A DNA stretch of 64,000 nt, taken from positions 329 to 64,328 of the forward strand of contig CAZBPG010000007.1 in NCBI GenBank assembly GCA_964493695.1, given 5' to 3'. Each line of letters begins with the position of its first letter. Within the stretch, counting starts at the first letter, position 1. The position numbers and the translations under genes are program-made. The notes below the pieces were generated by a model. The model searched no databases, was not told the DNA's origin, and saw nothing but the letters and a program-made list of their open reading frames with translations. The stretch is from an uncultured Chitinophaga sp. Lineage in GTDB: Bacteria; Bacteroidota; Bacteroidia; Chitinophagales; LD1. Positions 1-60,957 of this stretch are shown one piece after another.

Positions 1-182
1 ATTTAAGTAATATGAGCATTAGAATAAGCTAATATTTATCTTCTTTAAATAAAATGAACAGTAGCACTTTGTGAAGGGCCGGTTTTTGATGGTTTTTCGG
101 CCTGCTCATTCATAAAACAAGGCAAAAAACGGTTAAGGTAAGCTAAGCAAGCTTAAATAACTGAAGTTGCCAGTACAAAATA

Positions 183-302
183 GCGGGCTTCAGCCCGCAT
201 AAAACAATTATTTTCCGCTTATCTTTTGCTTTGCAGTTGGTTTAAACCAACTGCAAATACAGGATAAAAGGAAATTTTCTGTTTAAGGCGACTAAAGTCG
301 CC
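183..302. ncRNA. Copy A of a ~120-nt three-hairpin structured element (family also at 20321-20441 and 20524-20644); strand undetermined
   Basis: Three hairpins: GCGGGC-TTCA-GCCCGC (183-198), TTTGCAGTTGG-TTTAAA-CCAACTGCAAA (230-257), GGCGAC-TAAA-GTCGCC (287-302). The linker blocks TTTTCCGCTTATCTT, AGGATAAAAGGAA and CTGTTTAA are shared with the other copies. The stems differ from the other copies but stay paired. Confidence 0.45.
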
Positions 303-320
303 AACAACAAGCAACTTGGG

Positions 321-1469
321 TTAAATAATAAAGTCCAAATCGTTGTATGAAGCTATTACCTTGTTGTAATACGCTTCGTACTGAGGCAGGATATTAGTAA
401 TATCGAAAGTTTTGGCTTGGGCGAGTGCATTTTTCTTAAACTCCGTTAAGCGCTTTTCATCTTCAAGAACGTAAATGGCATTTTTGGCCATCTCCTCAAA
501 CTCGCCCACATTGCTCATAAAACCGGTTTTGCCGTGGATGTTTATTTCCGGAATTCCACCGGCATTCGAAGAAATAACCGGCACCTCTACCGCCATGGCT
601 TCGAGAGCGGCAAGGCCAAAGCTTTCGGTTTCGGAAGGAAGAATAAATAAGTCGGAAACCGCGAGCAATTCTTCCACTGCATCCTGTTTGCCCAGAAAAC
701 GAACATCAACGCAAATACCCAGATTGCGGCAAAGAATTTCAATGCCCATTCGTTCCGGTCCATCGCCCACCAAAAAAAGTTTGGAAGGAACCTTTTTATG
801 CACCAGGTCAAACATCTTCACTACATCTTCCACACGTTTTACTTTTCTGAAATTGGAAACGTGTGTCAGAATTTTTTCTCCGTTAGGCGCAATGGCTTTT
901 TTAAAATGGTCTTTATCGGTTTTTTTAAAACGCGAAAAATCAATGAAGTTCGGAATCACTTCTATCTCACGCGTAATGTTGAAGTTTTGATACGTGTCAT
1001 CTTTTAAACTTTTCGAAACCGATGTGATTCCATCGCTGTGATTAATGGAATACTCCACCACCGGCTTATAGCCGGGGTCTTTGCCTATAAGCGTTATATC
1101 AGTACCGTGCAAGGTGGTAACGAAAGGAAGGCTGTATCCTTTTTCTTTTAAAATGCTTCGGGCAATTAAAGCGGAAGAAGCGTGAGGAATGGCATAATGC
1201 ACATGAAGAATATCGAGCTTTTCGAATTTTGCAACGTCTACAATTTTACTTGCCAGGGCGCTTTCATAAGGCTGATACTGAAACAACGGATAATCCAAAG
1301 CCGAAACTTCATGGTAAAAAATATTCTCGTGAAAAGAATCCAGCCGCACCGGTTCCTGATAAGTAATGAAATGAACCTGATGGCCTTTGTTGGCAAGTGC
1401 CTTCCCTAATTCAGTAGCCACAACACCGCTTCCGCCATAGGTTGGGTAACATACAATTCCGATTTTCAT
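321..1469 (-). CDS. bshA: GT4-family glycosyltransferase, N-acetyl-alpha-D-glucosaminyl L-malate synthase (bacillithiol biosynthesis BshA-like)
   Basis: 382-aa ORF. N-terminus KIGIVCYPTYGGSGVVATELGKALANKGHQVHFI and C-terminal ESFGLAALEAMA motif are typical of BshA/GT-B retaining transferases. Confidence 0.8.
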   Translation of the reverse strand: MKIGIVCYPTYGGSGVVATELGKALANKGHQVHFITYQEPVRLDSFHENIFYHEVSALDYPLFQYQPYESALASKIVDVAKFEKLDILHVHYAIPHASSALIARSILKEKGYSLPFVTTLHGTDITLIGKDPGYKPVVEYSINHSDGITSVSKSLKDDTYQNFNITREIEVIPNFIDFSRFKKTDKDHFKKAIAPNGEKILTHVSNFRKVKRVEDVVKMFDLVHKKVPSKLFLVGDGPERMGIEILCRNLGICVDVRFLGKQDAVEELLAVSDLFILPSETESFGLAALEAMAVEVPVISSNAGGIPEINIHGKTGFMSNVGEFEEMAKNAIYVLEDEKRLTEFKKNALAQAKTFDITNILPQYEAYYNKVIASYNDLDFII

Positions 1470-2161: not shown

Positions 2162-5134
2162 CTACTTCCCTAACGCTTTATAAATCACCTCCTGCAAATC
2201 GGTGCGGATGTTCATTTTTACTAACTGATTGTTTTCGGCATTGGGGTAAACGCGGTTGCTGAGGAAAATATACGTCAGGTTATTTTCGGGATCGCCCCAA
2301 ACACAAGTACCGGTAAAGCCGGTGTGACCAAAAACCGAAAGCGGAACTCCATCATAACAAGGTGATGGCTTGCTCACATCCGGTTCGGGTTTATCAAACC
2401 CGAAACCTCTTCGTGAAATTTTTGACTGGCGCGAGGTGAAAAATTTAATAGTTGCTGAGTCGAGAAAGTGCTTGCCGTTGTAAGTTCCGTTGTTGAGCAA
2501 CATTTGAAAAAGTGCAGCCAGGTCAAACGCATTACTGAAAACTCCTGCATGTCCCGCCACTCCGCCATACATAGCCGCACCGGGGTCATGCACGTAACCA
2601 CGCACTACCTGTTTACGGAAAGCAGAATCATTTTCGGTAGGCAGAACTCTTTCGCGCACATACCTTTCTGTGGGGTTGAAACCAATTCGCGTTAAGCCCA
2701 TCGGGCGATAAAAATTCTGATTCACAAATTCCTCCAACCTCTTGCCCGAAATTTTTTCTGCAATTTTTTGAAGAATGTAAAAATCGTTATCACTGTAAAC
2801 ATACTTAGGATGTTCGTCTACCGATGAATGGTTGATAATGCTCCACATGGTATCGGGATAATCGTTGCGGATAAAAAGAGAATCAGCCACTCGAATTGAA
2901 AAAATGGAATCAGCAGTCTTGCGATAATAATTTCCGAAGTTGCTGTCAATGGTGTTTTTGTAAAACATAAAAAATGCTTTGAGTCCCGCCTGGTGCGTAA
3001 GCACATCCCTCAGCTTTAATTTTTTTATAGTTGCGCCCTTAGGCAGAGCGAGATAATCGCCAACAGTTTTATCGAGGTTAATTTTTTTCTGTTCGTAAAG
3101 TTTCATCACTGCGAGCGTGGTAGCGGCCACCTTGGTAATAGAAGCGAGGTCGTACAACTCGGCAGGCTTAACCACCTCAGCGCTCTCGTAAATTTTTGTT
3201 CCATAGCACTTGTTCCAAATTACCTTTCCGTCCTTTGCTATCAACAACTGGCAACCGGGAAATGCTTTACCGTCAATTCCCTTTTGAATGATGTCATCCA
3301 CTCGTCTCAACTCTGCTGTTTTTAAACCAACCTCCTCAGGTGCTGAAATTTTTAAACGATAAACATAGTCGGAAACAAAACCGGCACCTGCGGGAAAAAC
3401 CGGTGAAGCGGTAACCGGCAACTTTCCCGAAATTTTTTCAGCACCAAACAAAGCGTTAGCTGCTGCGAGATTAGTGGCATCGTTGTCTTCATATACTTCA
3501 AGAATCCATGGCGTGTATTCAAAAAACTTCAGCGAGTAAGGATTTCCGAAAACACAAAGCACTACCTTTGTTCTGCCGGTGAGCGAGTCTATAAACTTTC
3601 TGGTTTCTTCGGTTACGTTGTAATTTTTTGCAGCAGCCCGAACCATAGCGTGCAAATCAACTATCACCAAATCATAAGTAGCCAGCGTATCGAAAATACC
3701 GTTGAATGCTTTTTCGTTGTGCTCAAAACTCTGATTAAAAAAATCTATTTCCGCAAAATTATTGATGTGCCGTTGAAAGGGCGATGCACCGGAATTGCCA
3801 ATAGAAAGCGAAGCCACTTTTTTGTAATTCCAATCTTTGAAAGGCAGTAAATTCTCGTGATTCGCAGCAAGCGTTATAGCTTGCTCATACAATTTCTGCC
3901 GAAGCATTTTTCCTTTCGTGTTGTTTAAATCATCGCGCAAATTTTCGAGGGCTACATGCTGCGGTTTATTCAAACCCAGTTTGTATTTATACGCTAAAAC
4001 TTTTTTAACGCGGGCCTCCAACTCGCTTGCAGTAATCACCCCGCTATCCACTGCCATTTTGATTTTTTCAATTCCTTTCGAAGCATCTTCGCTGAACACC
4101 AGAATATCACAGCCCGCCATAAATGCCAAAGAGTCAACCGTGCCGGGTTTGTAATATTTGGCAACACCTTTCATGTTCAGCGCATCCGAAAAAACCAAAC
4201 CATCAAAACCCAGCGAATCTTTCAGCCAACCGGTGGCAATTTTTTTCGAAATGGAAGCCACGGAGCCGGAATCGCTGTCAAGAGAAGGAACGTTTAGGTG
4301 AGCCACCATCGCACTGCCCACATTGTTTTTGAAAAGAATTTTGAAGGGGTAAAATTCCAGCGAATCAAAACCGGCTGCACTCTTGGTTATTATTGGTAAA
4401 TCAAAATGCGAATCAGTATTCACATCCCCATGACCGGGGAAATGTTTCGCGCAGGCAAGTACGCCCTCATCCTGCATACCATCTGCGTATTCAATTCCTT
4501 TAAGCGCAACCTTGTATTTATCTTCACCAAAGCTCCGGTCGTTAATCACCGGATTATCGGGATTGTTGTTTACGTCTACATCGGGCGCAAAGTTGATGTT
4601 GATGCCGATGCGCCTGCATTCGCGACCAATCTCTCGGCCCATTTCATAAATCAAAGTATTGTCAGCCACAGCGCCCAGGGCAATCTGATGCGGAAAAGAG
4701 ATGGTAGAATCTAAGCGCATAGCTAAACCCCATTCGCCATCAATGGCAACAAAACTTTTCACTTTACAGGAGTCTTGAATTTTGTTTGTCCATTCGGCTT
4801 GCGGCTCCGGCAAGCCCTTAAAGAAAATTACACCACCGGCTTTGCCTTGTTTCATCGAACTCAAAACCGAGTCCATGTTATACAGCTTGCCATCGGTGTA
4901 GGCGGCAAGCATAAAAAACTGCCCGATCTGTTCCTCGACAGAGAGTTGATTGTAAACAGAATCAACCCATTTTATGCAAGCAGTATCTTTTTTCCAGTTT
5001 CTGAAATCGGGGTTCTGGGAGTAAGATGATAGACAATAGATGATAGACAATAGACAAACGCAAGCATGAAGCCCGAACTTTCTGATTTCTGATTTCTGAT
5101 TTCTGATTTCCACTTGTGCGAATAGACAAAACAT
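2162..5134 (-). CDS. Secreted fusion protein: glycoside hydrolase family 3 (NagZ-like beta-N-acetylhexosaminidase) N-terminal half plus serine beta-lactamase/PBP-like C-terminal half
   Basis: 990 aa. GH3 motifs (KHFPGHGD, INFAPDVDV). C-terminal ASITK (SxxK) and a class C beta-lactamase-like region. Signal peptide ...CLSSYS/QN. The heptamer repeat lies in the first 20 codons. Confidence 0.8.
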   Translation of the reverse strand: MFCLFAQVEIRNQKSEIRKFGLHACVCLLSIIYCLSSYSQNPDFRNWKKDTACIKWVDSVYNQLSVEEQIGQFFMLAAYTDGKLYNMDSVLSSMKQGKAGGVIFFKGLPEPQAEWTNKIQDSCKVKSFVAIDGEWGLAMRLDSTISFPHQIALGAVADNTLIYEMGREIGRECRRIGININFAPDVDVNNNPDNPVINDRSFGEDKYKVALKGIEYADGMQDEGVLACAKHFPGHGDVNTDSHFDLPIITKSAAGFDSLEFYPFKILFKNNVGSAMVAHLNVPSLDSDSGSVASISKKIATGWLKDSLGFDGLVFSDALNMKGVAKYYKPGTVDSLAFMAGCDILVFSEDASKGIEKIKMAVDSGVITASELEARVKKVLAYKYKLGLNKPQHVALENLRDDLNNTKGKMLRQKLYEQAITLAANHENLLPFKDWNYKKVASLSIGNSGASPFQRHINNFAEIDFFNQSFEHNEKAFNGIFDTLATYDLVIVDLHAMVRAAAKNYNVTEETRKFIDSLTGRTKVVLCVFGNPYSLKFFEYTPWILEVYEDNDATNLAAANALFGAEKISGKLPVTASPVFPAGAGFVSDYVYRLKISAPEEVGLKTAELRRVDDIIQKGIDGKAFPGCQLLIAKDGKVIWNKCYGTKIYESAEVVKPAELYDLASITKVAATTLAVMKLYEQKKINLDKTVGDYLALPKGATIKKLKLRDVLTHQAGLKAFFMFYKNTIDSNFGNYYRKTADSIFSIRVADSLFIRNDYPDTMWSIINHSSVDEHPKYVYSDNDFYILQKIAEKISGKRLEEFVNQNFYRPMGLTRIGFNPTERYVRERVLPTENDSAFRKQVVRGYVHDPGAAMYGGVAGHAGVFSNAFDLAALFQMLLNNGTYNGKHFLDSATIKFFTSRQSKISRRGFGFDKPEPDVSKPSPCYDGVPLSVFGHTGFTGTCVWGDPENNLTYIFLSNRVYPNAENNQLVKMNIRTDLQEVIYKALGK
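5034..5061. repeat. Direct 14-nt repeat GATGATAGACAATA x2 (ATAGACA-type heptamer family) in the signal-peptide coding region of the GH3 gene
   Basis: Read directly from the sequence. Encodes the hydrophobic core LLSIIYCLSS. Confidence 0.85.
5081..5112. repeat. Heptanucleotide tandem tract (TTTCTGA)x4.5, the reverse complement of (GAAATCA)n, in codons 9-18 of the GH3 gene
   Basis: Read directly. The reverse complement GGAAATCAGAAATCAGAAATCAGAAATCAGAA is identical to 6478-6509 in mutL. Confidence 0.95.
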
Positions 5135-14799: not shown

Positions 14800-14834
14800 T
14801 AAGTGTGCCACGGTTTTAAACCGTGGCACACTTA
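14800..14834. terminator. Hairpin between convergent thrC and the AI-2E gene (likely bidirectional terminator)
   Basis: 14-bp perfect stem TAAGTGTGCCACGG / CCGTGGCACACTTA with loop TTTTAAA. Confidence 0.55.
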
Positions 14835-17072: not shown

Positions 17073-17105
17073 AGCGATGCCATCTCTTTGAGAGATGGCA
17101 TCGCT
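17073..17105. terminator. Perfect 15-bp stem hairpin downstream of the SRPBCC gene
   Basis: AGCGATGCCATCTCT-TTG-AGAGATGGCATCGCT. Confidence 0.55.
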
Positions 17106-17113
17106 GCGATAGA

Positions 17114-17146
17114 AACCCCGAAAGGGTTCTAAACCCTTTCGGGGTT
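17114..17146. repeat. REP-like palindromic element AACCCCGAAAGGGTT-CTA-AACCCTTTCGGGGTT (family copy 1)
   Basis: The same palindrome recurs at 37091-37120, 41596-41615 (half) and 60926-60957. Confidence 0.85.
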
Positions 17147-17153
17147 GGAAATT

Positions 17154-20100
17154 TTATTCCACCACCAATCTTCCAAACGCCTTTTGTTTTTCGGAAGTTG
17201 TAATGCTGTAGAAATAAATTCCGGCACTCATGCCCTCGCGGTTAATGGTAAACCGGTTGTCGCTCAGCGCATTTATTTTCTTCAACAGCTTTCCGCTTAC
17301 ATCAAATAATTCGAAATGATAGGCACCGGTAATGCCCTCTACCGTTATTTGTGTTTGTTGTGTAAACGGATTGGGTGCGGCAATCACGGTTATACCCGCA
17401 TCGCTGGTGGTGTTGTGAATAGCATTCGGTTCGGTAAGGCGGCTGCTGACAGTGTTGGTTTTTATCGGCTCGTTGTAATCGAAATAGATGCTGGCACTGT
17501 TTTTAATTTCGGTGTTCAGCGGTAAGCCGTTTTTCTTCTTTATGCGAAAGGTTACAAAGCCCTTGCTTGCCGGTTCGTTGGTGGCGCTGTCTACTAAGAA
17601 AATTGGATTAAACACCCAGGTGAGTATTCCATTTCCCGATACATCGAACGAAGTATACTCATGGCTGCTCGCCAGGTTTTCTATTGTGGCAGGATTGAGA
17701 TAGGAGCTCAGCGTATCTTTCAGAATTATAAATGAGGTGGTATCGTTACCGGTGTTCTGGAAATGAATAGTATAGGTAAGTATACTGTCTTCTTCAAAAA
17801 TATCACCGGCAGGCGAAACTTCTTTTTCGTTAGGGTCCATGGAACCGGTTACCGGTTGCGTATAAATCTGATGATTATCCAAAGTATCGCAATCTCCGCT
17901 GTAAGGCAGTACCCAGAACTCCTGCGTTAGCTGATAGCCGATAGGTGTATTGGCAGGCACGGTTAAAAACACCTGCGGACGGTTAGCCCACGAAACAGAC
18001 GCAGAGGCATCGGCCACCTGCCAGGTAACGGTGCGGTTGCCCGCATTATGCACGCCACCGTTGTTGCTGCTCTGGTAAACCAGAATAGGGTCGTATTTAA
18101 AAATGATAGTGGCCGGACCGCTGTACTGCGGATTGCTTTGCTGCCAAACCAAAATCCAGTACTGTTTGGTAAAACCGGGGTTGGCACTCGTCCAGCCGGG
18201 GTGCAGCGCCAAATCGAAACCGCTTACGCCACCCATGCCCATGTTCACCACAGCGGTATCGCTTACACCGGCAAAAGTAACCGGACCGGTGCTGCACAAC
18301 ACTACGTTGGAGCAGCCCCCCCAGTTGTTATAGGCCTGAAGGGTAAAACTGCCCGCTGCGGGAATTTGAATAGTATATAAACCGGTGTTGTTGGTGTAGC
18401 CGTAATAACTGCCTCCACTACCGGTGGCATATATGCTCATGCCGGTAATAGGTACTTCGCCCGAATCTTTTACGCAATTGCCGTTGGCATCGTTAAAAGC
18501 GTATCCCTGTATCACGTTATGGCACGAAGTATAAATGTAAACATAGCCAATGCGGATACAGCCATCGGCACCTGTTACGGTAACGCTGTAACTGCCGCTT
18601 GACAGACCGGTAAGGGTTTGCGAAGTATCGCTGTTGCTCCACAAAAAGGTGAAAGGAGCAGTGCCGCCATATACGCTTACGGTTGCTGTGCCGTTGTTGC
18701 TGCAATTGGCGGAGGTGCCGGTGGCATATACATAATATCCGTAGTTGGTACTGCTTTGACTGACGAAGTAAGAAAAGGTAGCCTCACATAAAGCAGCATC
18801 GGTAACGGTAAGCGTGTAAGTGCCCGCTACAATACCGGTAATACTATCAGCGGTAGTGCCAGTGTTCCACAAATAGGTATAAGGCGGGCTGCCACCGGTT
18901 ACGGTTACCGAAAGCGAACCATCGGGTATGCCGTTGCAGCTTACCGGATGCGAACTTTGCAGGGCAACGACTACACCGGTGTTCAGCAAAGTATCAGCCG
19001 CTATTTGCACACAGCCCGAATCATCGGTTACCCAAACCAGATAAATACCGGCCTGGTCAACAGTAATTTCAGAGGTATTGGCACCGTTGTTCCATTGAAA
19101 GCTGTAAGGTGGTGTGCCACCGGTTACGTTGGCAGTAAGGGTATCGGTGGTATGGGTGCAGCTTAAATCCTGCGAGGTAATGGAAACCACTAAAGTATTG
19201 TTGGCGCACGAACCGGTAACCACAGCGGTGGTGCTAACGGTGCAGCCGTTGGCATCGGTAATGATAGCGGAGTAAGTTCCCGAACACAATCCGGAAACAT
19301 CTTCGGTAAACATAGCATTCGACCACAGGAAACTGTAAGGCGGAGTTCCACCGCCTACTGTTACATCAATAGCGCCATCGAAGGTACCGGTAGTAGATTC
19401 ATTGATTACAACATGCGTAGCCGTTAACGGTGTGGGCTCGAAAACAGTACCGGTAACAGTAGTACTACAGCCCCACGAATCGGTAACGGTAGCAGCGTAA
19501 TTACCTGCCATAAGGTTATTCATCATTTGCACCGTGCTGCCGTTGCTCCAGCTATAGGTATAAGGCGGGTGCCCACCGGTGGCTATAACCTGCAGGCCTC
19601 CATCATTTCCGCCAGCGCAGGATACACCGTTGGGAATAACCGTGGCCACTATCTGCGAAACCGAAATGCCAACACCCCCGGAGCTGTTGCAGCCGTTGGC
19701 ATCGGTAACGGTTAAAGTGGTATTGTAATAACCCTGGCTGGCATACACATGTACCGGTGTTATAAGGTTAGAGGTGGAGCCATCGCCAAAGTCCCAGATA
19801 TAGGTAAAGGGCGGTGTACCCGATTGTATTTGCGCAACAAAGCTAACCGGCTGCCCCGCACAGGTTATAGTATCGTTTACAAGCAGGGTAACATTTGCGT
19901 AAGGGAAAGCGGTGATAGTTACAAAGTCGGTATCCATGGCGCCTATGTTATCGGTAACTATTACCCGGTAGGTATAAGTGCCGTAAACCACTACCGTGGG
20001 GTTAGCCACCGTAGCACTGTTAAGTCCTATGGTAGGCGACCAGGCATAAGTATACGGACCGGTGCCACCGGCAGCGGTGGGGGAACCTCCAAGGTTTAAA

Positions 20101-20210
20101 GAAGTAAAGACACAAACGGTTTGGTCGGCACCCGCATTGGCGGTTAGCTGTGCGCTGGTTTCGGTTGCCAGTAAAAAAAGAAACAGCAGGGGGAGTAAAA
20201 AATTCTTCAT
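17154..20210 (-). CDS. Large T9SS-secreted surface protein with a PKD domain, about 8 SprB-type repeats and a T9SS type A C-terminal sorting domain
   Basis: 1018 aa. Signal peptide ...TSA/QL. Reiterated GGxPPYxYxWSNG...TVTDxxGC units. C-terminal PNPF...GIYFY...V sorting domain. Confidence 0.85.
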   Translation of the reverse strand: MKNFLLPLLFLFLLATETSAQLTANAGADQTVCVFTSLNLGGSPTAAGGTGPYTYAWSPTIGLNSATVANPTVVVYGTYTYRVIVTDNIGAMDTDFVTITAFPYANVTLLVNDTITCAGQPVSFVAQIQSGTPPFTYIWDFGDGSTSNLITPVHVYASQGYYNTTLTVTDANGCNSSGGVGISVSQIVATVIPNGVSCAGGNDGGLQVIATGGHPPYTYSWSNGSTVQMMNNLMAGNYAATVTDSWGCSTTVTGTVFEPTPLTATHVVINESTTGTFDGAIDVTVGGGTPPYSFLWSNAMFTEDVSGLCSGTYSAIITDANGCTVSTTAVVTGSCANNTLVVSITSQDLSCTHTTDTLTANVTGGTPPYSFQWNNGANTSEITVDQAGIYLVWVTDDSGCVQIAADTLLNTGVVVALQSSHPVSCNGIPDGSLSVTVTGGSPPYTYLWNTGTTADSITGIVAGTYTLTVTDAALCEATFSYFVSQSSTNYGYYVYATGTSANCSNNGTATVSVYGGTAPFTFLWSNSDTSQTLTGLSSGSYSVTVTGADGCIRIGYVYIYTSCHNVIQGYAFNDANGNCVKDSGEVPITGMSIYATGSGGSYYGYTNNTGLYTIQIPAAGSFTLQAYNNWGGCSNVVLCSTGPVTFAGVSDTAVVNMGMGGVSGFDLALHPGWTSANPGFTKQYWILVWQQSNPQYSGPATIIFKYDPILVYQSSNNGGVHNAGNRTVTWQVADASASVSWANRPQVFLTVPANTPIGYQLTQEFWVLPYSGDCDTLDNHQIYTQPVTGSMDPNEKEVSPAGDIFEEDSILTYTIHFQNTGNDTTSFIILKDTLSSYLNPATIENLASSHEYTSFDVSGNGILTWVFNPIFLVDSATNEPASKGFVTFRIKKKNGLPLNTEIKNSASIYFDYNEPIKTNTVSSRLTEPNAIHNTTSDAGITVIAAPNPFTQQTQITVEGITGAYHFELFDVSGKLLKKINALSDNRFTINREGMSAGIYFYSITTSEKQKAFGRLVVE

Positions 20211-20320
20211 AGTGGTTGGTTTAATATGTAATGAACAGGTTAAAGAGCGGAACAGTAAAAGAAAGGTTGTGTGTGCAACTATATTTCTGATAGAAGCGTC
20301 AGGCGGGGAATTTTTTTGGG

Positions 20321-20441
20321 GCGGACTTTAGTCCGCCCTATAAAAAAGATTTTTCCGCTTATCTTGTTTGCGGTCTGATTAATCAGACCGCAAGGCAAGG
20401 ATAAAAGGAATATCCTCTGTTTAAACCGGACTAAAGTCCGG
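20321..20441. ncRNA. Copy B of the three-hairpin structured element
   Basis: GCGGAC-TTTA-GTCCGC, TTGCGGTCTGA-TTAA-TCAGACCGCAA, CCGGAC-TAAA-GTCCGG, plus the conserved linker blocks. 2 mismatches in ~121 nt against copy C. Confidence 0.45.
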
Positions 20442-20523
20442 GATATACGTTTGGGTCTGTTGCAGACGACCCTGCGCGAGTTGAATAGCCGCAGGGTTCT
20501 GAAGCGGAAACCCGGGGAAAGAA

Positions 20524-20644
20524 GCGGACTTTAGTCCGCCCTATAAAAAAGATTTTTCCGCTTATCTTGTTTGCGGTCTGATTAATCAGACCGCAAGGCA
20601 AGGATAAAAGGAATATCCTCTGTTTAAACCGGACTGAAGTCCTG
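20524..20644. ncRNA. Copy C of the three-hairpin structured element (tandem to copy B, 203-bp offset)
   Basis: Near-identical to copy B, while the inter-copy sequence has diverged strongly. Confidence 0.45.
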
Positions 20645-20770
20645 GATTCACATTTTTGGGGAGGCACACAGAACAAAAGAATAGCGGCAAAAGATTGTTA
20701 TGCGGCAGTAAGCCCGCCACCGCAAGGCCGTCTGTAAGCAGATAACAGTAAGATATGCGTTATTACATAC

Positions 20771-21022
20771 TTCCGAAAATTCAGAACTAAATAAAAATAT
20801 AAAATTTAGCATTTCTGAATTTACAGAAATTATACTTAGCTAATTAGATAATAATTCCGCATTTTCAGAACTATTAAAATATAATTTATACCTCAATTCA
20901 GAATATACCGAAAAATTAGTAAATATAGTATTAAATATTTCGGAATTTACCGAATCATAACAATTGAAATTTTAATTCAATTCGGAATATTCTGAATTTA
21001 TAAAAAATCTTTCTACCTTGCA
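20771..21022. repeat. Phased array: six 42-bp units, each a conserved 17-mer TTCNGAAWWTWCNGAAN followed by 25 bp of variable AT-rich DNA
   Basis: 17-mers start at 20771, 20813, 20855, 20897, 20939 and 20981 (every interval exactly 42 bp). The region is strikingly AT-rich by eye. Confidence 0.9.
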
Positions 21023-21065
21023 TATTCAATACCCTAAATGCCATAAACCGTCAAACTTATAGCCT

Positions 21066-21758
21066 ATGTTAGACCCTATTCGCTTAGTTACTGATCTTTT
21101 TAAAGAAAAGAACTTGTCTGATGCTAACCTCCGAACGTTTGCCGAAGTCTTCCTGATTCGCCTTTCGCAACCCGACAACAACCCGGGCGGCATCTACAAC
21201 CAGCTACTGCTTAACACTACCACTTTATATCAAAACTATTACGGCACCATTACCAACCAGCTTACCAAAGAAGCTATAGGGCAGGGCACCACCATTGCCA
21301 TGAACAATGCGCGGGCAAAGGTAATTGCCAAGCTGAGTTCGCTGCAAGGGTTGGTGCAGTTTAAGTTTGGCGAAAGCAGCGCCATATATCAGGAGTTTTA
21401 CCCGCGGGGTATGAAGGAATACCACCACGCTACTATTGACGGCCTTACTACTCCGCTCATGCGCTACCGCACTACCGCTGCCCTGCGCCTTAATGCCGAC
21501 TATCCGGGCGAGGTAACGGAGGTAACCGGCCTTATCAATAGTTTTTTAGACGCGCGCAAAACACAGGAACTGGTGTATGCAGAGGTAGATGCCATAGCCA
21601 CCGGCCGGCACACACACCGCAAGAAACTTACGCTGCAACTTACTAAATGCTTTCTGGTAATAGCCAGCGACCATCTCGAAAACCCCGACCAGTTTGATAA
21701 TTATTACGAACCGCGGTATTTGCCAATAAGAAAAGGGAAGAAGAAAGAGAAGGGTTGA
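21066..21758 (+). CDS. Hypothetical protein (orphan, no family recognised), basic C-terminal tail
   Basis: 230-aa ORF, visibly GC-richer than the upstream array. Ends RKGKKKEKG. Its stop codon abuts the kbl stop with zero spacer. Confidence 0.55.
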   Translation: MLDPIRLVTDLFKEKNLSDANLRTFAEVFLIRLSQPDNNPGGIYNQLLLNTTTLYQNYYGTITNQLTKEAIGQGTTIAMNNARAKVIAKLSSLQGLVQFKFGESSAIYQEFYPRGMKEYHHATIDGLTTPLMRYRTTAALRLNADYPGEVTEVTGLINSFLDARKTQELVYAEVDAIATGRHTHRKKLTLQLTKCFLVIASDHLENPDQFDNYYEPRYLPIRKGKKKEKG

Positions 21759-22945: not shown

Positions 22946-23281
22946 TTAAGGTTTTACTCTTCGTAATTTTTTAAGTTGAACGGGACTTCGTTTGCCATGA
23001 AAAATATCAAGTACCCAAACTTCAGTCTTCACAATCTTGTAAATTATTTTGTAAGTAGAAGCATAAACTGCTTTGCGGTAAACGTGATTTTTGGTGGGAA
23101 GTTCCGGACATTCGGGATAAGCATATGGATGTTGCCAAAGAGAATTTCCTAAATCCTGAATTTCTGAATCTACTCTGTCCGCTTGCCGCACGGAATCTAA
23201 AGCGATAAATTCATACACCGACTGAAGAGATAATTTGGCATGGTTTGTCCAAACTATTTGTAGCCTCTTTGTTTCTTCCAT
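22946..23281 (-). CDS. Type II toxin-antitoxin system RelE/ParE family toxin
   Basis: 111 aa. ParE-like pattern ([11 protein letters not shown]..., YRKAVY..YKIIYKI....[11 protein letters not shown]). Confidence 0.7.
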
Positions 23282-23535
23282 GTTTCCATTTCCTTTTTCA
23301 GTTGCGCGGGCGTATAAACTCTGCCGGCCTTTATATCAGCTTCGGCAGAAGCAATTCGATTTTTAAACTCTTTTACCGAAAGTTGTTTACCATTAGCATA
23401 GTAGTCGGTCATCTTTTCTTTTGTCTTTTGCTTTGGCTTCGAAATCTTTACATCTACTACTTCTTTTTGCTTAAGAAGCTTAGCGGCAAATAATTCTTCG
23501 TTGGTTCCCTTTCTTATTTCAACGCGTAAAAACAT
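23254..23535 (-). CDS. Putative cognate antitoxin (small protein overlapping the ParE-like gene by 28 nt)
   Basis: Position and overlap only, no family recognised. The true start may be the internal ATG at 23412. Confidence 0.35.
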   Translation of the reverse strand: MFLRVEIRKGTNEELFAAKLLKQKEVVDVKISKPKQKTKEKMTDYYANGKQLSVKEFKNRIASAEADIKAGRVYTPAQLKKEMETWKKQRGYK

Positions 23536-41787: not shown

Positions 41788-41978
41788 TTAACGACAGATA
41801 TGACGACAGCTTAACGATAAACCACGACAACTGAACGACAATGCACGAAAGGTTAACGATAAACCACGACAGCTTAACGACAATGCACGAAAGGCTAACG
41901 ACAAACCGCGACAGTTTAACGACAATTCACGCAAGGCTAACGATAAACCACGACAGCTTAACGACAATCCAAAGCAAG
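41788..41978. repeat. Tandem array of nine 21-bp units (YTAACGAYAA-N-CACGA...), alternating two subtypes to give a 42-bp higher-order repeat
   Basis: Unit starts at 41788, 41811, 41832, 41853, 41874, 41895, 41916, 41937 and 41958. Two degenerate units lie upstream at ~41736 and ~41759. Confidence 0.9.
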
Positions 41979-60110: not shown

Positions 60111-60515
60111 TAAAAAAAGACCTGTTAGTCTTTCTCAGGGTAAATCCTTCAGGGCAATGGCATTAGGTTAAGGGGCAAAGTAAAAAATAAAAAGCTATGA
60201 TTATTACTTTTTGAGTGTCCGCACCCCAAAAAAATTCCGATTCCCTTGTTTTGGCAACATACACTCGTATTAAACGAATTGCTTTTGTTCCCCCCAAAAA
60301 CAACTACACCGCTAAAATTGACCACAAACAAAGCTAACCTCAAACCATCCCTAAAATTTCTTCGGGCTTCCCAGCCACCAACACCAAGGGCGGAATTACT
60401 TTCCGCTTCTCGCTGGCAGATTAAAAGAACCTCTTAGAAAGACAAAAAGCATTCGAAAAACAACAAAATCGTCTGTTTTTCGGGTTTCACGAAGCGGAGG
60501 GGAGGTCTCACCAAT

Positions 60516-60870
60516 CATTGCGGAAGACTCCTGAATGGTTCGGGAAGGCTCACCAGCCATTGCGGAAGACTCCCGAATGGTTCAGGAAGACTCACCAGCC
60601 ATTGCGGAAGGCTCCCGAATGGTTCAGGAAGACTCACCAGCCATTGCGGAAGGCTCCCGAATGGCTCAGGAAGACTCACCAGCCATTGCGGAAGGCTCCC
60701 GAATGGTTCAGGAAGACTCACCAGCCATTGCGGAAGGCTCCCGAATGGCTCAGGAAGACCCACCAGCCATTGCGGAAGGCTCCCGAATGGCTCAGGAAGA
60801 CTCACCGACCATTGCGGAAGACTCCTGAATGGTTCGGGAAGGCTCAACAACCATTGCGGGAGGCCCCGTA
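60516..60870. repeat. Tandem array of about 8.5 copies of a 42-bp unit (CATTGCGGAAGGCTCCCGAATGGTTCAGGAAGACTCACCAGC)
   Basis: CATTGCGG starts at 60516, 60558, 60600, 60642, 60684, 60726, 60768, 60810 and 60852 (all 42 bp apart). There is an internal 21-bp half-periodicity (GGAAGRCTC twice per unit). Confidence 0.95.
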
Positions 60871-60925: not shown

Positions 60926-60957
60926 TACCCCGAAAGGGTTTTAAACCCTTTCGGGGT
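60926..60957. repeat. REP-like palindromic element (family copy 4), just downstream of the T9SS protein gene
   Basis: ACCCCGAAAGGGTT-TT-AAACCCTTTCGGGGTT. Confidence 0.85.

Follow-up and report, generated by a model that had tools for sequence, protein, structure and literature searches.

The window analysed here is a stretch of 64,000 nt (64 kb) from contig CAZBPG010000007.1 of an uncultured Chitinophaga sp. (GCA_964493695.1, positions 329 to 64,328 of the forward strand). It contains three copies of a ~130-nt unit in which two GC-rich hairpins, inverted relative to each other, enclose a long structured spacer. These units are probably a low-copy family of intergenic repeats built as dimers of repetitive extragenic palindromes (REPs), similar to REPINs (REP doublets forming hairpins) or to bacterial interspersed mosaic elements (BIMEs), with a long structured spacer and degenerate GTAG tags. 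The units form a repeat family, they are symmetric, their presence differs between relatives, and their hairpin core is identical to that of REPs linked to genes for REP-associated tyrosine transposases (RAYTs). Judged by sequence, the end hairpins of the unit are variants of the REP hairpin tied to RAYT genes in Bacteroidota. The units would be mobilised by a RAYT in the source genome, and they may affect expression.

Copies 1 and 2 lie in tandem between two diverging genes, one for an adhesin of the type IX secretion system (T9SS) and the other an orphan open reading frame (ORF). The 855-nt region between these genes has three parts: ~110 nt at the adhesin start, a hairpin-rich segment at 20306-20760, and an AT-rich segment of 27% G+C. 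A direct-repeat search returned both copies as units of 132 nt with 96% identity and a spacing of 203 nt. The initial 116 nt are identical, and all 5 mismatches fall in the final 16 nt. The 121-nt cores differ at exactly 2 positions (A/G in the H3 loop and G/T in the H3 stem). The tandem pair reported by the first-pass annotation, which was made from the letters alone, is real. The identity block is sharp-edged, which agrees with its claim that conservation is confined to a discrete core. The "barely alignable remnants" that it described in the flanks do not rise above chance level (local alignment against shuffled sequences, p = 0.09 and p = 0.43). The pair is therefore a sharp-edged block and not a simple tandem duplication of 203 nt; a decayed form of such a duplication is likewise unsupported, with flank similarity not above chance.

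The diverged copy 3 was detected by a covariance model built from copies 1 and 2. It scored 58 bits with the long-hairpin consensus and 82 bits (E ~1e-16) with a three-hairpin model. A covariance search with filters off found no fourth copy in the window. Copy 3 follows the stop codon of a GT4 glycosyltransferase gene (321-1469, minus strand) at a distance of 15 nt. Its context, a gene 3' end, is unrelated to the divergent intergenic region of copies 1 and 2. The three copies share no relation to a gene: one site lies between divergent gene starts, and the other just past a stop codon.

Each unit contains hairpin 1 (H1, GGGCGGAC-TTTA-GTCCGCCC), hairpin 2 (H2), which is the perfect palindrome TTGCGGTCTGA-TTAA-TCAGACCGCAA enclosed by a closing helix, and hairpin 3 (H3, CCGGAC-TAAA-GTCCGG). 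The closing helix consists of the segments TTCC/GGAA, TTATC/GATAA, and TTGT/GCAA. All stem pairs are Watson-Crick except one C:T mismatch in H3 of copy 2, and the hairpins have no G-U pairs. The predicted folding energy of the unit is -68 kcal/mol, compared to -35 +/- 3 kcal/mol in shuffles (z = -10.0 on the plus strand). The three hairpins and the closing helix are as had been proposed, and the energy is far below that of shuffled sequences. The hairpin CCCTGCG...CGCAGGG that had been proposed for the DNA between copies 1 and 2 is present, yet it is only mildly unusual (z = -2.7).

The minus strand folds nearly as well (z = -8.8 against shuffles), because the whole unit is an imperfect palindrome. 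Of its 144 columns, 98 are self-complementary, with a score of 44 compared to a null of -12 +/- 8. H3 repeats H1 in inverted form, and the same holds for the two halves of the closing helix. The 91-nt spacer between H1 and H3 is itself a long palindrome, with the arms TTCCGCTTATC and GATAAAAGGAA around a perfect central hairpin. For copy 2 on either strand, and for copy 1 on the minus strand, a long single hairpin was predicted in which H1 pairs with H3. Copy 3 forms the same three hairpins on both strands (-55.1 vs -55.0 kcal/mol), and the strand comparison by covariance score gave 82 vs 78 bits. Owing to the dyad symmetry and the Watson-Crick stems, both strands are therefore equivalent. A single T:G juxtaposition in the closing helix had been read as a clue that the plus strand is the RNA. 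The equal fold of the minus strand deprives it of usable strand information, and the orientation argument fails because this helix segment is not conserved in copy 3.

The stems of copy 3 differ from those of copies 1 and 2 by 8 compensated pairs and 0 broken pairs. H1 is changed from GCGGAC/GTCCGC to GCGGGC/GCCCGC (1 compensated pair), H2 from TTGCGGTCTGA to TTGCAGTTGGT with a matching 3' arm (4 pairs), and H3 from CCGGAC/GTCCGG to GGCGAC/GTCGCC (3 pairs). Among these changes are C-G to G-C transversions, which are impossible via wobble intermediates. The blocks TTTTCCGCTTATCTT, AGGATAAAAGGAA, and TCTGTTTAA and the loops TTAA and TAAA are unchanged in copy 3. The inverted arrangement of H1 and H3 is found in all three copies, with the loop polarity kept. 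Compensatory stem substitutions in a further copy had been named beforehand as a test of the fold, and copy 3 provides them.

The same data bear on another explanation, namely that the units are a new family of structured non-coding RNA of ~130 nt, either a small RNA (sRNA) or a modular cis-acting RNA. The three hairpins would then be the functional fold, and the linkers UUCCGCUUAUC, GGAUAAAAGGAA, and UCUGUUUAA the interaction surfaces. The compensated pairs of copy 3, its invariant linkers and loops, the very low folding energies, and the better fit of copy 3 to the three-hairpin model (82 vs 58 bits) all speak for such an RNA. The unit also matches no known RNA family, as had been supposed: Rfam gave no match, either for 20100-21100 in E-value mode or for the whole window at the gathering threshold, and the best sub-threshold match reached 21.8 bits compared to thresholds of 47-100. 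What speaks against an RNA is the lack of strand asymmetry and of G-U pairs in the hairpins, together with the inconsistent position and orientation of the copies relative to genes. No promoter or terminator was found bracketing copies 1 and 2 in a sigma-70-type scan, which has Bacteroidota promoters outside its scope. In addition, the covariation comes from three sequences, of which two are almost the same, the end hairpins match a DNA repeat tied to a transposase, and two relatives lack the element at the orthologous site. We consider the structured RNA quite unlikely. The novel leader or sRNA implied by the first-pass annotation is not sustained, in view of strand neutrality, absence from two relatives, the lack of a shared relation to a gene, and end hairpins of REP type.

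The two relatives share the order adhesin, intergenic region, orphan ORF, and kbl with the window. One is a locus from a JGI metagenome (L083), whose Kbl (glycine C-acetyltransferase) has ~93% amino acid identity; the other is a locus of GCA_020051655.1 (L204), whose orphan ORF is 80% identical at the amino acid level. For the glycine C-acetyltransferase of the window, the best match reached 93%, and the relatives that carry a name are labelled "Chitinophagales bacterium". In both, the 110 nt proximal to the adhesin and an AT-rich array of boxes can be aligned with the window, and the middle segment is an unrelated sequence of 170-260 nt without the element. The covariance model had no match in L204 or in the related loci L079-L083. 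The element is thus absent at the orthologous site of both relatives with both flanking blocks conserved, which constitutes an insertion polymorphism. Homology between the window and L083 ends at TTATTTTTGG, which in L083 is followed directly by CAAC without the element. The unit shows neither the conserved position and strand nor the G-U pairing of a cis-regulatory leader.

The polymorphism also bears on a regulatory device, at the DNA or RNA level, specific to this locus, such as an invertible or deletable phase-variable segment between the identical palindromes upstream of the adhesin, an insulator or terminator module separating the divergent promoters, or a set of protein-binding palindromes. 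Surface-protein genes of Bacteroidota are often phase variable, and the tandem pair lies directly upstream of, and abuts, the conserved ~110-nt promoter-proximal block of a T9SS surface adhesin gene. The pair also holds identical 26-nt perfect palindromes 177 nt apart. On the minus strand, downstream of the gene 321-1469, H1' of copy 3 reads GCGGGC-UGAA-GCCCGC-UAUUUUG, i.e., it has a U-rich tail on the strand of the gene and is terminator-like; copies 1 and 2 are not, as their hairpins lack T runs on either strand. The relatives keep the gene arrangement without the element, no recombinase gene is present in the annotated neighbourhood, and the third copy sits at the 3' end of an unrelated gene. 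Such a device is very improbable. An inverton was rejected for the missing recombinase and the absence of the element in relatives, and no DnaA boxes were found in the intergenic region, so that a replication origin or iterons were rejected there as well.

The link to REPs comes from other organisms. The 18-mer of H1, GGCGGACTTTAGTCCGCC, was found with 18/18 identity in at least 120 metagenome loci; the full unit was absent from all listed metagenome loci with this 18-mer. GTAG stands directly 5' of the 18-mer in at least 70 of 130 instances, on contigs of 34-69% G+C. Two or more such hairpins lie close together in 28 of the 120 loci, among the matches listed. The occurrence of an identical hairpin over this range of G+C contents hints at a very widely distributed REP/RAYT lineage. 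Several low-GC loci contain head-to-head dimers of the form TTGTAG-GGCGGAC-TTTA-GTCCGCC-ATAAA...(22-30 nt)...GCGGAC-TAAA-GTCCGC-YCTACAA. The unit of the window shares with them the hairpin, the sequence ATAAA that follows the left hairpin, and the loop polarity, with TTTA on the left and TAAA on the right. Its H1 and H3 are variants of GGCGGAC-TTTA-GTCCGCC, and the opposite-strand sequence of H3' in copy 3 equals the canonical hairpin except for one missing base pair. A few of the metagenome instances carry CGTCG in place of GTAG.

One of the loci (L095) encodes a 136-aa IS200-like Y1 transposase (Y1_Tnp, PF01797, E = 3e-27). Its ORF is flanked on both sides by ~200-nt tandem units that carry the hairpin in alternating orientation, each with GGGCAGAC-TTTA-GTCTGCCC and an inverted GGCGGAC-TAAA-GTCCGCC. 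Homologues of this ORF occur in Flavobacteriia, Cytophagia, and Chitinophagales and are labelled "REP element-mobilizing transposase RayT". A 60%-identical homologue (locus L212) has CGTAG-GGCAGAC-TCAA-GCCTGCC-CTACG and another hairpin of this kind in its flanks; this hairpin, GTAG-GGCAGAC-..-GYCTGCC-CTAC, is one compensated pair away from H1. An iterative phmmer search of the 120 listed REP-bearing loci yielded no RAYT beyond that of L095, and the NCBIfam matches in the REP-dimer loci were to housekeeping genes only. A match to the ends of a known insertion sequence (IS) or miniature inverted-repeat transposable element (MITE) had been named in advance as evidence against the first interpretation, and the resemblance of the terminal hairpins to the RAYT-associated REP hairpin is essentially such a match.

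If the units are REP dimers, they would be non-autonomous elements that could be reiterated in tandem; a RAYT-type HUH/Y1 transposase, with its gene at another place in the genome, would copy them to new extragenic sites as hairpins in single-stranded DNA (ssDNA). The stems would stay pairable since the hairpin is recognised by the enzyme or by a DNA-level process. The compensated changes would lack strand bias because it is the hairpin in ssDNA that is recognised. Effects on neighbouring genes would be by-products. For example, copy 3 places a last hairpin followed by UAUUUUG in the 3' tail of the glycosyltransferase gene, on the gene strand, where it may serve as a terminator or 3' stabiliser.

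Insertion could also have been brought about by other machinery. In this alternative, the unit is a MITE-like element of different origin, either a deletion derivative of the IS200/IS605 type (palindrome-associated transposable element, PATE) or a derivative of an unrelated IS, moved by the respective transposase, and the REP likeness of its ends would be convergent. A length of ~130 nt, inverted ends, the presence/absence polymorphism, and the missing GTAG tag are in line with this, and a transposase could bind the conserved internal blocks. In the manner of a target-site duplication, which it could be, the 9-nt direct repeat TTTTTGGGG lies on both sides of the tandem pair; it fits an insertion but is no proof of one. 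However, this repeat encloses the pair as a whole, not the individual units, and copy 3 lacks it. Neither the window nor any searched collection yielded a parent IS or a transposase with these ends, and the terminal repeats are self-hairpins with 18/18 identity to the GTAG-tagged REP that flanks a RAYT. We therefore regard a MITE of other origin as unlikely.

Several observations weigh against the REP-dimer reading itself. The GTAG tag is absent: the outer flanks of copies 1 and 2 are TTGG and AGAA, with ATAG only at the inner edge of H1, and copy 3 is flanked by ATAG on the left and GTTG (opposite strand) on the right. Conservation is higher in the spacer blocks than in the terminal hairpins, whereas typical REPIN populations show the opposite. 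H1' and H3' of copy 3 complement each other poorly, and the three-hairpin model fits this copy better by 24 bits. The 64 kb contain three copies at two extragenic sites, where REP-rich genomes would show more, and tblastn found no RAYT in the window. The RAYT loci of two Chitinophagales genomes (L205 and L206) are flanked by a different palindrome and thus provide no direct link to the unit. Finally, no full-length relative was found in the collections searched. Among GTDB species representatives, the central hairpin GCGGTCTGA-N4-TCAGACCGC occurs in 78 loci, in each case as the hairpin alone and unrelated; the 26-nt central palindrome had zero matches in JGI metagenomes, three patterns had zero matches in viral contigs, and blastn gave zero matches in plasmid and phage collections. 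Our confidence in REP dimers is kept moderate because of the tag, the spacer, the end pairing of copy 3, and the departures in copy number and RAYT. Possibly the family is decaying or has been exapted, or a different enzyme moves it.

Taken further, exaptation would turn the unit into a functional three-hairpin module, acting as RNA or ssDNA in uncultured Chitinophagales, which is no longer, or never was, a selfish repeat and which would represent a new class of structured nucleic acid derived from REP hairpins. The linkers TTCCGCTTATC, GATAAAAGGAA, and TCTGTTTAA would be its active surface, with the stems free to drift as long as they pair, and it would act, for example, on the expression of the adhesin or of cell-surface genes. 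We consider this version distinctly improbable. The coordinates of the three copies, their parts, and the flanking genes are given in Table 1.

Table 1. Positions of the three units, their structural parts, and the genes on either side of the tandem pair
Feature	Position	Strand	Description	Score
Copy 1	20321-20452		H1 20319-20338, closing helix 20353-20410, H2 20368-20393, H3 20426-20441	166.8 bits
Copy 2	20524-20655		H1 20524-20539, closing helix 20556-20613, H2 20571-20596, H3 20629-20644	165 bits
Copy 3, diverged	178-306		H1' 183-198 (GCGGGC-TTCA-GCCCGC), closing helix 213-273	
Copy 3, H2'	230-257		TTTGCAGTTGGT-TTAA-ACCAACTGCAAA	
Copy 3, H3'	287-302		GGCGAC-TAAA-GTCGCC	
Spacer between copies 1 and 2	20453-20523		71 nt, weak hairpin CCCTGCG/CGCAGGG	
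Linker block TTTTCCGCTTATCTT	20351-20365, 20554-20568, 211-225		Invariant in three copies	
Partner block AGGATAAAAGGAA	20398-20410, 20601-20613, 261-273		Invariant	
Block TCTGTTTAA	20416-20424, 20619-20627, 278-286		Invariant	
9-nt direct repeat TTTTTGGGG	20313-20321 and 20653-20661		Encloses the entire tandem pair	
SprB/PKD/T9SS adhesin gene	17154-20210	minus	Pfam	
Orphan ORF	21066-21758	plus	230 aa	

The AT-rich segment upstream of the orphan ORF (27% G+C) contains, at 20771-20996, six palindromic boxes of 16 nt with the consensus TTCTGAATATTCAGAA. They start at 20771, 20813, 20855, 20897, 20939, and 20981, an exact period of 42 nt, and occur nowhere else in the window (5 matches at up to 3 mismatches, compared to 0.4 expected). 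L083 and L204 both retain the array, which, from its layout, looks like an ordered series of sites bound by a transcription factor or a nucleoid protein. The orphan ORF represents a genuine, conserved gene: it has 29 homologues, down to 46% identity, none of which contains a Pfam domain. In L083 and L204, its homologue again neighbours a SprB/PKD/T9SS adhesin gene, and the two are separated by the same box array. The relatives L079 and L081 lack the adhesin-orphan pair, which therefore behaves as an accessory cassette. Further along, between kbl and a rhodanese gene, a ParE-family toxin gene (22946-23281, minus strand) is accompanied by a small upstream ORF (23254-23535); the toxin gene is absent at that position in L079, L081, and L083.

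The window contains other palindromes and repeats. The convergent genes for thrC and an AI-2E transporter are separated by a perfect 35-nt palindrome, TAAGTGTGCCACGGTTTTAAACCGTGGCACACTTA, that takes up the whole gap (14800-14834); in the relative L081, where these genes abut, it is absent. The Y1/RAYT-like genes in L205 (ATAGCCCACGGTTTAAACCGTGGGCTAT) and L206 are flanked by a palindrome to which the core of the 35-nt palindrome, CCACGGTTT(T)AAACCGTGG, corresponds. The 35-nt palindrome may represent a second REP-type family or a mobile terminator in the source genome. In L206, a Ferruginibacter metagenome-assembled genome, ~25 copies of a 33-34-nt unit, GTGGGTTATGAGCAGTAGCCTTTACATCCAGCG, lie at 3400-4220, directly downstream of the Y1_Tnp gene. 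The palindrome in which this gene ends has GTGGGTTATGAGCAG, a part of the unit, as one of its arms.

Two gene 3' ends (17114-17146 and 60927-60957) share the perfect palindrome ACCCCGAAAGGGTT-(C/T)TA-AACCCTTTCGGGGT, and a further palindrome at 17073-17105 adjoins the former. These palindromes appear terminator-like from their form and location, yet they are repeated in sequence. Two non-coding tandem arrays also have a 42-nt period: one at 60507-60868 (8.6 copies, 92% matches, unit CTCACCAGCCATTGCGGAAGGCTCCCGAATGGTTCAGGAAGA) and the other at 41803-41971 (~4 copies, 90% matches). They are open in several frames only because of their repetition.

If the REP-dimer reading is true, the unit is an ordinary kind of object in a group, the freshwater, uncultured Chitinophagales-like Bacteroidota, where such repeats are barely described. 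The conservation of the spacer above that of the REP ends, together with the lost GTAG, is unusual and may indicate that the population is decaying or has been exapted. Because such units show compensatory changes, RNA-motif screens and annotation pipelines will go on labelling them "novel structured RNAs". A repeat can be told cheaply from a structured RNA by its dyad symmetry and strand-neutral pairing.

Among known systems, ERIC/IRU, Correia (CREE), RUP, and RPE elements resemble the unit in length (100-150 nt), in whole-unit dyad symmetry, in being foldable when transcribed, and in their intergenic insertion by promoters or gene ends. They have no sequence similarity to it and possess plain terminal inverted repeats, with a TA duplication in Correia elements, whereas the ends of the window unit are self-folding hairpins of the REP type. 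IS200/IS605 elements and PATEs share with it the subterminal ssDNA hairpins, which in these elements are used by the HUH Y1 transposase, and the lack of classical inverted terminal repeats. The end hairpins of IS200/IS605 have the same orientation on one strand and flank tnpA/tnpB cargo; those of the window unit are inverted and enclose no cargo.

The closest counterparts are REPINs (Bertels and Rainey 2011, PMC3116915; Di Nocera et al. 2013, PMC3733652), which are non-autonomous units copied by a single-copy RAYT (PMC3116915, PMC5581495). H1, H3, H1', and H3' are short (20-40 bp), GC-rich palindromic stem-loops, as REPs are. REP dimers are spaced 20-100 bp apart, and head-to-head dimers have conserved spacers whose ends are complementary or contain small stem-loops (PMC3733652). 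For Bacteroidetes, the survey of tagged palindromes from 2013 lists CGTC-type repeats only (Di Nocera et al. 2013, PMC3733652). The window unit departs from REPINs in its absent or degenerate GTAG, in a 91-nt structured spacer that is conserved above the hairpins, in a long single hairpin that is not kept in copy 3, and in a copy number that appears low. In common with REPINs, it has GC-rich inverted hairpins around a spacer, an extragenic location, the ability to fold as a unit, compensated stem variation, presence/absence differences between relatives, and a hairpin core identical to that of GTAG-tagged dimers and RAYT-flanking repeats of other metagenomic organisms. REP clusters consist of dimers reiterated in tandem together with flanking DNA (PMC3733652). 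The segment 20321-20655 is likewise made of head-to-tail dimer units with 71 nt of unrelated DNA between them; it differs from BIMEs and REP clusters in comprising two units only in the window, and the ~200-nt units around the RAYT gene of L095 resemble it. It is this match of the unit's anatomy to published REP dimers and clusters on which we base the assignment to REP dimers.

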